Shown: piece after piece, positions 3,037 to 4,272 of the stretch
Numbering within the stretch: the stretch's first letter is position 1
Layout: each line of letters opens with the position of its first letter
Virus record (IMG/VR): IMGVR_UViG_2531839236_000006
DNA: 4,272 nt
Reading direction: 5' to 3' (one strand)
From: a virus
Taxonomy: Duplodnaviria > Heunggongvirae > Uroviricota > Caudoviricetes
Notes under the pieces: model-generated
Told to the model about the DNA's origin: nothing
The model's input: only the letters and a program-made list of their open reading frames with translations
Databases searched by the model: none
Position numbers and translations under genes: made by a program

Positions 3037-3594
3037 ATGACCACTATTACCAAAGATCGACTGCTGACAATCCAGCATTGGCGCGAAACATACGGACCGG
3101 GTAGCAACGTTGTGCTTCCAGCAGAAGAAGCGGAAGAGCTGGCACGGATTGCGCTGGCATCACTGGCAGCAGTATCGGATGAACGAGCAGCCTATGAATT
3201 ATTTATGGAGAAGCGTTTCGGAGAATCTGTAGATCGCCGCAGAGCAAAAAATGGCGATAGAGAATACATGGCATGGGATATGGCGCTTGGCTGGATTATC
3301 TGGTGTCACCGCGCCGCCATGCTTCAGGCTGGAAACTTTCGGGAAAATAAGGGTTCGTCAACCAATAATTTTCGGATAATCTCGGAAACGTCAACCAACT
3401 CTCCGGCAATCCCTGATGAGGTGTTGTCCGCAATCCTGAAGGTCGCCAGGCTTCGTGCAGATTTCGATGCTTCTGAAGTGGACAGGCGAGGTATCGGTAG
3501 TTGTCTGGATGAGGCCGAGCAAGAACTTATCGTTACCATTAACGAATACGCCAGTCAGATCGCAGTAGAAGCGACACAGGGGGAGAACCAATGA
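3037..3594 (+). CDS. Hypothetical protein, 185 aa
   Basis: ATG 3037 lies 2 nt after the upstream stop, with AAGGTGA at 3024-3030. Long ORF in coding-like composition; stop TGA 3592-3594. No motif I can assign. Confidence 0.65.
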   Translation: MTTITKDRLLTIQHWRETYGPGSNVVLPAEEAEELARIALASLAAVSDERAAYELFMEKRFGESVDRRRAKNGDREYMAWDMALGWIIWCHRAAMLQAGNFRENKGSSTNNFRIISETSTNSPAIPDEVLSAILKVARLRADFDASEVDRRGIGSCLDEAEQELIVTINEYASQIAVEATQGENQ

Positions 3595-3668
3595 GCCGGC
3601 CAGATGCATTTGCAGGCGTTGCTATAGCTATTGCTTTTCTAGTATATGTTATTTGTCGGTGGGGGTAA
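3591..3668 (+). CDS. Candidate 25-aa hydrophobic micro-protein (MSRPDAFAGVAIAIAFLVYVICRWG)
   Basis: ATG 3591 overlaps the stop of the upstream gene (ATGA) and is preceded by GGGGGAG at 3578-3584. Single hydrophobic helix-length segment; stop TAA 3666-3668. Absent from the ORF track because of its size. Confidence 0.35.
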   Translation: MSRPDAFAGVAIAIAFLVYVICRWG

Positions 3669-3703
3669 AAACGTTCGCCGGGATTCACACCAAGGGAGGG
3701 AAT

Positions 3704-3808
3704 ATGTCGGATGATATTTCACTGGTAATGGAAGGCGCTCTGGCTGTTATTGCTGTTGTGGGTGTTTACTGCCTGGTTGTGTTTTTGATGGAGCGCCTGG
3801 GGAACTGA
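3704..3808 (+). CDS. Candidate 34-aa single-TM micro-protein (MSDDISLVMEGALAVIAVVGVYCLVVFLMERLGN)
   Basis: ATG 3704 is preceded by AGGGAGGG at 3692-3699. Acidic N-terminus, about 20 hydrophobic residues, charged C-terminus; stop TGA 3806-3808. Confidence 0.4.
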   Translation: MSDDISLVMEGALAVIAVVGVYCLVVFLMERLGN

Positions 3809-3818
3809 ATTCATTCCG

Positions 3819-3834
3819 TATGGGAATTCCCATA
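3819..3834. promoter_or_regulatory. Perfect 16-bp palindrome TATGGGAATTCCCATA, candidate protein-binding site or RNA hairpin
   Basis: The reverse complement is identical to the forward sequence. It sits 11 nt after the stop of the 34-aa ORF and about 15 nt upstream of the putative hok -35 element. Confidence 0.4.
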
Positions 3835-3848
3835 TCGGGCAAAACGGT

Positions 3849-3876
3849 TTGCTGTAAAGCGAGAGTTAAGTAGAAT
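3849..3876 (+). promoter_or_regulatory. Putative sigma70 promoter of the hok mRNA
   Basis: -35 TTGCTG at 3849-3854, 16-nt spacer, -10 TAGAAT at 3871-3876. This places the transcription start at about 3883-3885, directly at the segment that is complementary to the 3' fbi-like element. Confidence 0.5.
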
Positions 3877-3882
3877 TGCTGC

Positions 3883-3930
3883 GGGTGCTTGAGGCTGTCT
3901 GCCTCGGGCATGCCACCGTAAGGCAGACAG
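3883..3930 (+). promoter_or_regulatory. hok mRNA 5' leader: tac-like 5' segment plus a 10-bp stem-loop
   Basis: 3883-3894 GGGTGCTTGAGG is complementary to 4257-4269. Perfect inverted repeat CTGTCTGCCT (3895-3904) / AGGCAGACAG (3921-3930) with a 16-nt loop. No U-tract follows, so it is not an intrinsic terminator. Confidence 0.55.
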
Positions 3931-4003
3931 AGAAAAGCCCCAGTTAACATTACGCGTCCTGCAAGACGCTTAACATTAATCTGAGGCCCAATCTATGCTT
4001 CAC
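3930..4003 (-). ncRNA. sok: Putative Sok-like antisense RNA (antitoxin of the hok locus); ends approximate
   Basis: The minus-strand promoter predicts a start near 4003. The transcript would be antisense to the mok SD (GAGG at 3983-3986) and mok start codon (3995-3997). On the minus strand a compound hairpin (outer stem 3937-3943 / 3981-3987 with one mismatch, inner stem 3954-3958 / 3965-3969) is followed by UUUUCUCU (complement of 3929-3936), which is terminator-like. Confidence 0.5.
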
Positions 4004-4207
4004 AAACGTAGGTTAGCCTCTTACGCGCCGAAAGGCAAGGAGAAGCAGGTTATGAAGCAGCAAAAGGCGATGTTAATCGCCCTGATCGTCATCTGTTTAA
4101 CCGTCATAGTGACGGCACTGGTAACGAGGAAAGACCTCTGCGAGGTACGAATCCGAACCGGCCAGACGGAGGTCGCTGTCTTCACAGCTTACGAACCTGA
4201 GGAGTAA
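3995..4207 (+). CDS. mok: Mok-like reading frame (modulation of killing), 70 codons, in frame with and extending hok
   Basis: ATG 3995 with weak SD GAGG at 3983-3986, running in the same frame through hok to TGA 4205-4207. Same layout as I recall for mokC/hokC in E. coli K-12. Confidence 0.55.
   Translation: MLHKRRLASYAPKGKEKQVMKQQKAMLIALIVICLTVIVTALVTRKDLCEVRIRTGQTEVAVFTAYEPEE
4010..4038 (-). promoter_or_regulatory. Putative sok promoter
   Basis: Read on the minus strand: -35 TTGCCT (complement of 4033-4038), 17-nt spacer, -10 TAACCT (complement of 4010-4015). Located inside the mok reading frame, as in the plasmid R1 hok/sok model. Confidence 0.4.
4052..4207 (+). CDS. hokD: Hok/Gef family type I toxin, 51 aa, HokD (RelF)-type
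   Basis: ATG 4052 with AAGGAG at 4037-4042. The translation MKQQKAMLIALIVICLTVIVTALVTRKDLCEVRIRTGQTEVAVFTAYEPEE has the Hok architecture (N-terminal TM helix, conserved Cys, periplasmic tail). It matches my memory of E. coli K-12 HokD essentially residue for residue and differs at several positions from HokC. Confidence 0.9.
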   Translation: MKQQKAMLIALIVICLTVIVTALVTRKDLCEVRIRTGQTEVAVFTAYEPEE

Positions 4208-4256
4208 GAGACCTGGCGGGGGAGAAATCCCTCGCCACCTCTGATGTGTCAGGCAT

Positions 4257-4272
4257 CCTCAACGCACCCCAC
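4257..4272 (+). promoter_or_regulatory. fbi-like (fold-back inhibition) element at the 3' end of the hok mRNA; may continue past the window
   Basis: 4257-4262 plus 4264-4269 (CCTCAA-c-GCACCC) pair with 3883-3894 (GGGTGCTTGAGG), 12 bp with one bulged C. This 5'-3' pairing is the hallmark of hok mRNAs. Confidence 0.5.

Follow-up and report, generated by a model that had tools for sequence, protein, structure and literature searches.

A short toxin gene of the hok family, the reading frame mok that runs in frame into it and, on the opposite strand, a putative gene for the antisense RNA Sok lie at the 3' end of the window, by which the whole stretch of 4,272 nucleotides analysed here is meant. 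The two reading frames are bracketed by a pair of complementary segments referred to as tac (translational activator element) and fbi (fold-back inhibitory element). The features are listed by coordinate, together with the basis on which each was assigned.

Around 3848-3854, plus strand: weak -35 element (TTTGCT/TTGCTG), read from the sequence.
3871-3876, plus strand: -10 box TAGAAT of the hok/mok promoter, 6 nt before G3883, read from the sequence.
3883-3894, plus strand: tac, the 5' arm of the fold-back, at the mRNA 5' end; fold probability 0.97-1.00, covaries with fbi.
3885-3911, plus strand: predicted metastable 5' hairpin of the nascent RNA (3885-3894 with 3902-3911), from a fold of the first 46 nt.
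3933-4003, minus strand: putative gene for the antisense RNA Sok, assigned from its homology to sokW as annotated in 933W (1593-1663 of locus L002, minus strand).
3935-3941, plus strand: ucb (upstream complementary box, anti-Shine-Dalgarno), AAGCCCC, from the folds.
3983-3986, plus strand: mok Shine-Dalgarno sequence GAGG, placed 8 nt before the start codon of mok (ATG at 3995).
3995-4207, plus strand: reading frame of mok (70 codons), which shares both the frame and the stop of hok; mokW is annotated at the equivalent position of 933W.
4010-4038, minus strand: putative sok promoter, -35 TTGCCT (4038-4033), 17-nt spacer, -10 TAACCT (4015-4010), identified by eye.
4017-4020, plus strand: dcb (downstream complementary box), CCTC, paired with the mok Shine-Dalgarno sequence in all three truncated folds.
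4052-4207, plus strand: hok toxin gene, 51 amino acids, MKQQKAMLIALIVICLTVIVTALVTRKDLCEVRIRTGQTEVAVFTAYEPEE; Shine-Dalgarno sequence AAGGAG at 4037-4042; PF01848 match.
4214-4237, plus strand: 3' UTR stem-loop with no T-run after it, a 10-bp hairpin in all folds, kept in all relatives.
4257-4269, plus strand: fbi, the 3' arm of the fold-back, with C4263 bulged; from folds, duplex energy and covariation.

The Hok open reading frame matches the Pfam family PF01848 (HOK_GEF) with an E-value of 1.2e-23 and 82.9 bits against a cut-off of 22, and the NCBIfam Hok subfamily models match it below their strict cut-offs. The protein is identical to the Hok of many prophage loci and is annotated as hokD in near-identical E. 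coli loci. The leader upstream of it was matched by the Rfam model RF01794 over its full length (model positions 1-157, window positions 3883-4057, plus strand) and scored 114.9 bits, where the gathering score is 59; this model carries the name "sok", and the full-length match on the plus strand therefore means that it recognises the hok mRNA leader. A further Rfam match, to ceN48, had an E-value of 0.99 and was dismissed as chance.

At the nucleotide level, 493 bases of the window (3780-4272) share 99.4% identity with hokD-annotated prophage loci from E. coli O157:H7 and other strains, and 4,728 of 5,426 complete E. coli genomes contain a match. The longer segment 2800-4272 shows 97% identity to the best of the complete E. 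coli genomes. No exact copy of 3883-4272 was found among 82 loci (SS52, 933W and 80 viral loci). In SS52, the neighbouring genes encode Cro/CI, the replication protein P and a DUF1627 protein, followed downstream by DUF968, RusA and Q, a setting that is the early/nin region of a lambdoid phage.

The transcript is predicted to start at G3883, both from the spacing to the -10 box and from the alignment of position 1 of RF01794 to this base, and relatives carry a -10-like hexamer (TAGAAT, TATAAT or TACAAT) at an equal distance from their 5' ends. Neither the hok nor the sok promoter was reported by a consensus promoter scan, in the case of hok because its -35 element is weak; a plus-strand site which the scan did report at 3970-3999 was regarded as chance. 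The layout of the putative sok promoter matches that of an R1/F-type plasmid sequence (TTGCGC, 17 nt, TATCCT), and the Sok RNA is predicted to fold into a 14-nt single-stranded 5' tail and a long hairpin (-29.2 kcal/mol, z = -5.2). Judged from the letters of the sequence, the Hok and mok reading frames, the homologues of the sok gene and its promoter, and the 3' stem-loop are all intact. It is highly probable (about 0.9) that 3871-4272 is an intact hok/mok/sok type I toxin-antitoxin cassette of the hokD/hokW type, located in the early region of a lambdoid prophage and equipped with a tac-fbi fold-back switch.

The original prediction had pointed to a 12-bp complementarity with one bulge, its arms about 375 nt apart and flanking mok and hok, and its coordinates and sequences proved exact. 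The 5' arm, GGGTGCTTGAGG, occupies 3883-3894 and the 3' arm, CCTCAACGCACCC (that is, CCTCAAcGCACCC), occupies 4257-4269, the two being separated by 374 nt. The helix consists of 12 Watson-Crick pairs, in which 3883-3888 pair with 4269-4264 and 3889-3894 with 4262-4257, leaving C4263 bulged. Exactly this helix was returned by the minimum-energy fold of 3883-4272, whether or not a terminator tail was appended, with pair probabilities of 0.97-1.00, so that the folding proposed as a check on the pairing bore it out.

The earlier suggestion that the element might be incomplete at the window edge holds in part only: fbi itself is complete inside the window, and it is the downstream terminator hairpin that lies beyond the edge. 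A consensus scan found no terminator-like site in 3700-4272, and thus no predicted end of the transcript before 4257, which the original prediction had named as a finding that would speak against it. The downstream sequence used in the folds was taken from SS52 (L001) and from a second locus, L032, with the window's own terminator lying outside the sequence. A canonical terminator starts 6 nt past fbi in SS52 and consists of AACCCGCTTCGGCGGGTT and a subsequent T-run. The window ends in ...CACCCCAC, with a one-base deletion after fbi (CACCC-CAC); L032, about 96% identical to the window over 3841-4272, is the only fetched locus that shares this deletion, and it continues as TTAACTCGCTTCGGCGGTTTTTT, which forms a weaker hairpin. 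In 933W, there is no terminator hairpin at the position after fbi. The terminator context downstream of fbi is variable.

The pairing was then followed across 169 hok loci, comprising SS52 and 933W (L001 and L002), 80 viral contigs that encode an identical Hok, eight R1/F-type plasmid loci and 79 loci from a one-genome-per-species set that were found with a four-protein Hok alignment. The genera covered are Escherichia, Shigella, Kluyvera, Photorhabdus, Pantoea, Citrobacter, Pseudocitrobacter, Mixta, Sodalis, Buttiauxella, Leclercia, Dryocola, Siccibacter and Klebsiella. The 5' ends can be sorted into a few types, and to each type belongs a matching 3' block:

Window and hokD/hokW: tac GGGUGCUUGAGG, fbi CCUCAAcGCACCC.
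hokC-type: tac GGGUGCUUGAGG, fbi CUUCAAcGCACCC.
Kluyvera: tac GGGUGCUUGAGA, fbi UCUCAAcGCACCC.
Photorhabdus (no bulge): tac GGGCGCUUGAGA, fbi UCUCAAGCGCCC.
Citrobacter youngae: tac GGGUGCUUGAAG, fbi CUUCAuAGCACCC.
Sodalis and Mixta: tac GGGUGCUCUGGAUC, fbi GAUC..GAGCACCC.
R1 type: tac GGCGCUUGAGG, fbi CUGAAGCGCC.

A structure-blind MAFFT alignment was made of 52 distinct constructs, each joining the 5' 20 nt to the 3' UTR, from Escherichia, Kluyvera, Photorhabdus, Pantoea, Sodalis, Mixta, Citrobacter, Buttiauxella and R1/F-type plasmids, and the helix was scored in the register of the window. Paired cells made up 89.3% of the total, compared with 28-58% when the 3' partners were slid by 1-3 columns, and changes on both sides were seen in five of the 12 pairs. 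Pair 4, for example, is UA in 30 constructs, CG in 19, UG in two and another combination in one. The covariation score of 0.229 exceeded that of shuffled alignments (0.161 +/- 0.008), with none of 500 shuffles reaching the observed value; since these sequences are related rather than independent, this figure, like the permutation figure given below, overstates significance and is not to be read as a probability. In the distal half of the helix, bulged and unbulged families are offset by one column in this alignment, and pairing at pairs 8-12 is understated for this reason.

For the distal half-helix, each locus therefore had to be analysed as a duplex in its own register, a procedure that leans towards pairing and that covered 39 distinct tac/fbi combinations. 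Compensatory types were found at position 4 (UA 17, CG 19), position 8 (UA 33, CG 3), position 10 (AU 29, GC 2), position 11 (GC 33, AU 1) and position 12 (GC 24, AU 11). The tac and fbi of the same locus formed duplexes of -20.8 kcal/mol on average, compared with -17.9 kcal/mol for partners swapped between loci, a difference which none of 10,000 permutations reached. Without recourse to any alignment, at least eight of nucleotides 1-12 were paired within the homologous fbi block in the full-length minimum-energy folds of 51 of 51 relatives. The covariation across hok loci on which the original prediction could have foundered was thus seen, and decisive for the predicted pairing are the several distinct compensatory pair types that occur in different clades. 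The assignment of 3883-3894 and 4257-4269 as the tac and fbi of a hok-family mRNA is supported, as the matches to RF01794 and PF01848, the identity to hokD/hokW, the compensatory changes and the folds according to the R1 model all agree on it.

Several characterised systems resemble the window locus to different degrees. The hok/mok/sok (parB) locus on plasmid R1 and the flm locus of F share with it the general layout, tac, ucb, the mok Shine-Dalgarno sequence, dcb and the putative Sok target, as well as the 3' stem-loop, fbi, a terminator that for the window would lie beyond its edge, and the predicted three-state folding pathway. They differ in being carried by a plasmid, in the case of R1, rather than by a prophage, and in their toxin, the window Hok being only about 41-43% identical to that of R1/F. 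The arms differ too: tac is GGGUGCUU in the window and GGCGCUU in R1, and fbi is CCUCAAcGCACCC in the window and (A/C)CUGAAGCGCC in R1, so that the helix of the window has one extra G-C pair, a U-A pair replacing C-G, and a bulged C replacing a G-G mismatch. Much closer is the hokW/mokW/sokW cassette of 933W and of the Sakai prophage Sp5, with about 92% nucleotide identity over 3841-4269, identical tac and fbi, a toxin region that aligns closely with the window at the nucleotide level, and a host element that is likewise a lambdoid phage. The 933W cassette is found near the end of its record beside a ygiW-like gene, whereas that of the window lies downstream of replication genes. The hokW-sokW pair of Sp5 is a functional type I toxin-antitoxin system, in which the toxin is toxic, is neutralised by sokW and promotes phage release (PMC8621323). 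Shorter hokW RNAs have also been seen in Sp5, without being characterised (PMC8621323).

The relBE-hokD (relF) locus of the E. coli K-12 type presents a different picture. Its Hok is identical or near-identical, and it has the 3' stem-loop and fbi of the window as well as the terminator expected past the window edge, but relE replaces the upstream sequence, and tac, ucb, mok and sok, of which the window has the complete predicted set, are lost, so that these copies are unable to form the fold-back. Five relBE-linked, degenerate hokD copies that keep fbi and terminator were encountered among the loci, and fbi alone is consequently no proof of an intact system. The argument of the original prediction that the pairing speaks for a regulated locus rather than a decayed one therefore needs qualifying: fbi by itself would not suffice, and the window locus is judged intact because both arms and every other element are present. 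From its sequence, what the prophage carries is a complete and probably functional hok/mok/sok module, not a remnant of the relF kind.

An intact structure could still belong to a functionally silent locus, its fold-back persisting as a conserved relic that the prophage passively carries along. The chromosomal hokA, hokB and hokC gave no post-segregational killing, as cited in bioRxiv 10.1101/2025.08.07.668861, and since several chromosomal hok loci failed in this way, an intact sequence is no proof of activity; the clearly degenerate relBE-linked copies, which nevertheless keep fbi, point in the same direction. Such silence is unlikely here, however, as every element is intact and the Hok protein does not differ from the form prevalent in prophages, a toxic effect is shown for the close relative hokW-sokW of Sp5, together with its neutralisation by sokW and an influence on phage release (PMC8621323), and the compensatory evolution of the arms implies ongoing selection on the pairing.

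The way in which an active fold-back switch would operate is illustrated by the predicted folds. In the full-length RNA, tac and fbi are closed upon each other, and three of the four bases of the mok Shine-Dalgarno sequence are held by ucb, with G3983, G3985 and G3986 pairing with C3941, C3939 and C3938, respectively. When the RNA is truncated at 4240, 4245 or 4250, tac (3883-3890) pairs instead with ucb (3935-3941), U3886 being bulged, and the mok Shine-Dalgarno sequence shifts to dcb (4017-4020). The predicted bulge of U3886 in the tac-ucb stem fits a freedom of this base to covary with fbi alone. The first 46 nt, representing the nascent RNA, fold into a hairpin of 3885-3894 with 3902-3911, which would keep tac occupied during transcription and is the counterpart of the transient nascent structure of R1 hok mRNA (PMC9841398). 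In silico, the folds of the window reproduce the whole model of plasmid R1 with its three states.

Work of the 1990s on R1 established the tac/fbi fold-back (Thisted 1995 and Franch 1997, cited in PMC9841398), and the R1 mechanism, including slow 3' processing and the neutralisation of Hok toxicity by Sok, has been described (PMC9841398). While the window and its relatives supply the evidence for the pairing and for its conservation and covariation, for the structural switch as predicted and for the intactness of the parts, it is from the work on R1 and Sp5 that we infer the transcript ends, the processing at the 3' end, the coupling of translation, the action of Sok and the toxicity. Briefly, the hok mRNA would start at G3883, and its first 12 nt (tac) would pair with fbi to close a full-length transcript of about 410-430 nt. 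In this closed state, the free ucb (3935-3941) would sequester the mok Shine-Dalgarno sequence (3983-3986), and because of this sequestration mok and the coupled hok would stay untranslated and the Sok target hidden. Slow exonucleolytic trimming from the 3' end up to the stem-loop at 4214-4237 would remove fbi. By analogy with the truncated mRNA of R1, whose last stem-loop shields it against exonucleases (PMC9841398), this stem-loop is expected to protect the 3' end of the processed mRNA. The freed tac would then capture ucb, with U3886 bulged, and the mok Shine-Dalgarno sequence would move to the weaker pairing with dcb (4017-4020), leaving a trimmed mRNA that could be translated and that would be open to Sok RNA (about 4003 to 3933, minus strand). 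Sok would normally trigger decay of this mRNA; once Sok is lost, Hok would be made and the cell killed.

A real pairing might also serve mainly to protect the mRNA ends from RNases, translation being controlled essentially by Sok alone. End-pairing does close both termini in the predicted fold, alternative structures lower the degradation of hok mRNA in R1 (PMC3851714), and mutations in the 3' stem-loop act via RNase sensitivity (PMC9841398), but it is the state of tac and fbi that decides between the hold of ucb and that of dcb on the mok Shine-Dalgarno sequence in the window folds, and this Shine-Dalgarno switch is documented as a translational switch for R1 (PMC9841398), which makes protection as the main task very unlikely. 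Stabilisation of the mRNA and translational silencing are not mutually exclusive.

Taken singly, the window sequence places the tac-fbi pairing only moderately beyond chance. A search of the whole window for 12-bp inverted pairs that have one bulge or none and arms 200-600 nt apart returned tac-fbi together with one unrelated pair (1324-1336 with 1666-1679), and about 1.2 such pairs per window are expected by chance according to our own estimate. When the match was anchored at transcript nucleotide 1 and limited to the 65-nt 3' UTR, an equal one occurred in 87 of 300,000 shuffles (3e-4). The duplex energy of -20.6 kcal/mol was equalled or bettered in 92 of 5,000 dinucleotide shuffles, a p of only about 0.02 because both partners are rich in G+C. 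Compared with every 65-nt tile of the window, the 5' 14-mer finds its best partner in that of the 3' UTR. The notion that two G+C-rich 12-mers are complementary by coincidence and have no biological role can draw on the equally good second pair and on the shuffles that match the duplex energy, but it has a negligible likelihood and is effectively refuted by covariation, given the compensatory changes at several positions across genera, the better fit of partners from the same locus and the folding together of the ends in 51 of 51 relatives. The tac-fbi pairing is taken to be real because, besides covarying, it starts at the predicted first nucleotide of the hok mRNA and directly precedes the terminator of the relatives.

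This pairing belongs to the known elements, and the locus that carries it is a near-identical copy of an annotated one. Conservation of tac/fbi in the hok mRNA family was reportedly described by Gultyaev in 1997 and by Pedersen and Gerdes in 1999. A comparable arrangement exists outside the hok family in the aapA/IsoA type I toxin-antitoxin system of Helicobacter pylori, where a long-range 5'-3' interaction keeps the full-length mRNA inert and 3' trimming activates it, with a toxin and sequences unrelated to hok. A member of that system, aapA3, is mentioned in PMC9841398. The conservation of the fold-back in the hok family has also been described by Steif and Meyer 2012 (as cited in PMC3851714), and prophage hok loci are common (bioRxiv 10.1101/2025.08.07.668861).

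A more far-reaching idea, for which we see little likelihood, is that the hok cassette is a self-contained mobile RNA switch with borders set by RNA structure and a terminator supplied by the downstream sequence; the one-base deletion and a weakened terminator, as in L032, could then shift the full-length 3' end and the timing of activation. The value of the present locus lies mainly in its correct annotation, and it raises no new question. A complete hok/mok/sok module would bear on the maintenance or release of the prophage, as shown for Sp5. The comparison also provides an in silico illustration of a conserved R1 folding pathway, which extends from prophages of Escherichia as far as Photorhabdus and Sodalis and is accompanied by compensatory changes.

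In phage hok cassettes, homology to the window stops exactly at 4269, the last base of fbi. The borders of cassette homology between unrelated phages coincide with the promoter (3841, or 3871) on one side and with this last fbi base on the other.

Unrelated phages (933W, Stx phages and P1-like phages) carry hok cassettes whose homology to the window begins at position 3841 or at 3871, the first base of the -10 box, and stops precisely at 4269, where the fbi, the 3′ UTR partner of the 5′-terminal tac element, has its last base. The promoter and the fbi seem to be the limits of a mobile hok unit. Directly after the fbi, a terminator hairpin is present in SS52-type loci, the E. coli hokD prophage type, and is absent from that position in 933W.

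The sequence immediately upstream of hok carries two tiny hydrophobic ORFs, neither of which had a match in Pfam or NCBIfam:

3591-3668, tiny hydrophobic ORF of 25 aa, MSRPDAFAGVAIAIAFLVYVICRWG
3704-3808, tiny hydrophobic ORF of 34 aa, MSDDISLVMEGALAVIAVVGVYCLVVFLMERLGN

The second of these corresponds, by position only, to a 34-codon hypothetical protein annotated in SS52 (L001 4925-5029). Between its stop codon and the hok promoter lies a perfect 16-bp palindrome, TATGGGAATTCCCATA (3819-3834), and the homology to the 933W-type cassette begins just past it, at 3841.

At the other end of the cassette, the window (4269-4272) and a single fetched locus, L032, have in common a one-base deletion directly 3′ of the fbi, reading CACCC-CAC versus CACCCGCAC. 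In L032 the site is located in the 3′ UTR, starting about 65 nt past the hok stop codon, and the terminator downstream of the deletion is weakened (AACTCGCTTCGGCGGTTTTTT).

The hokD copies linked to relBE (L034, L038, L094, L099 and L116) are devoid of tac, ucb (the upstream complementary box), mok and sok because relE replaces the upstream sequence, while the 3′ stem-loop, fbi and terminator are all retained; the fbi sequences of these copies are orphan elements without a partner.

Another inverted pair of 12-13 bp with one bulge, formed by TGAGTCAGCCGTC (1324-1336) and GACGGGCTGACTCA (1666-1679), occurs inside the coding region, its arms 342 nt apart, and the frequency of such pairs is consistent with chance (~1.2 expected per window).

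The Rfam family RF01794, named 'sok antitoxin', matches the hok mRNA strand (window 3883-4057, +), whereas Sok itself would be encoded on the minus strand, from about 4003 to 3933. An annotation that takes its strand from the name of the family can therefore go wrong.

Enterobacterial hok loci were also encountered in genome contigs (L100, L110, L117 and L160-L162) whose records are titled as a Veillonella MAG, Acinetobacter idrijaensis, Xanthomonas pisi, a Ferruginibacter MAG, Streptomyces morookaense, and Oscillibacter. Their Hok proteins are either 96-100% identical to that of the window or of the R1 type, and, since most of these contigs are short, contamination during assembly or binning is likely.
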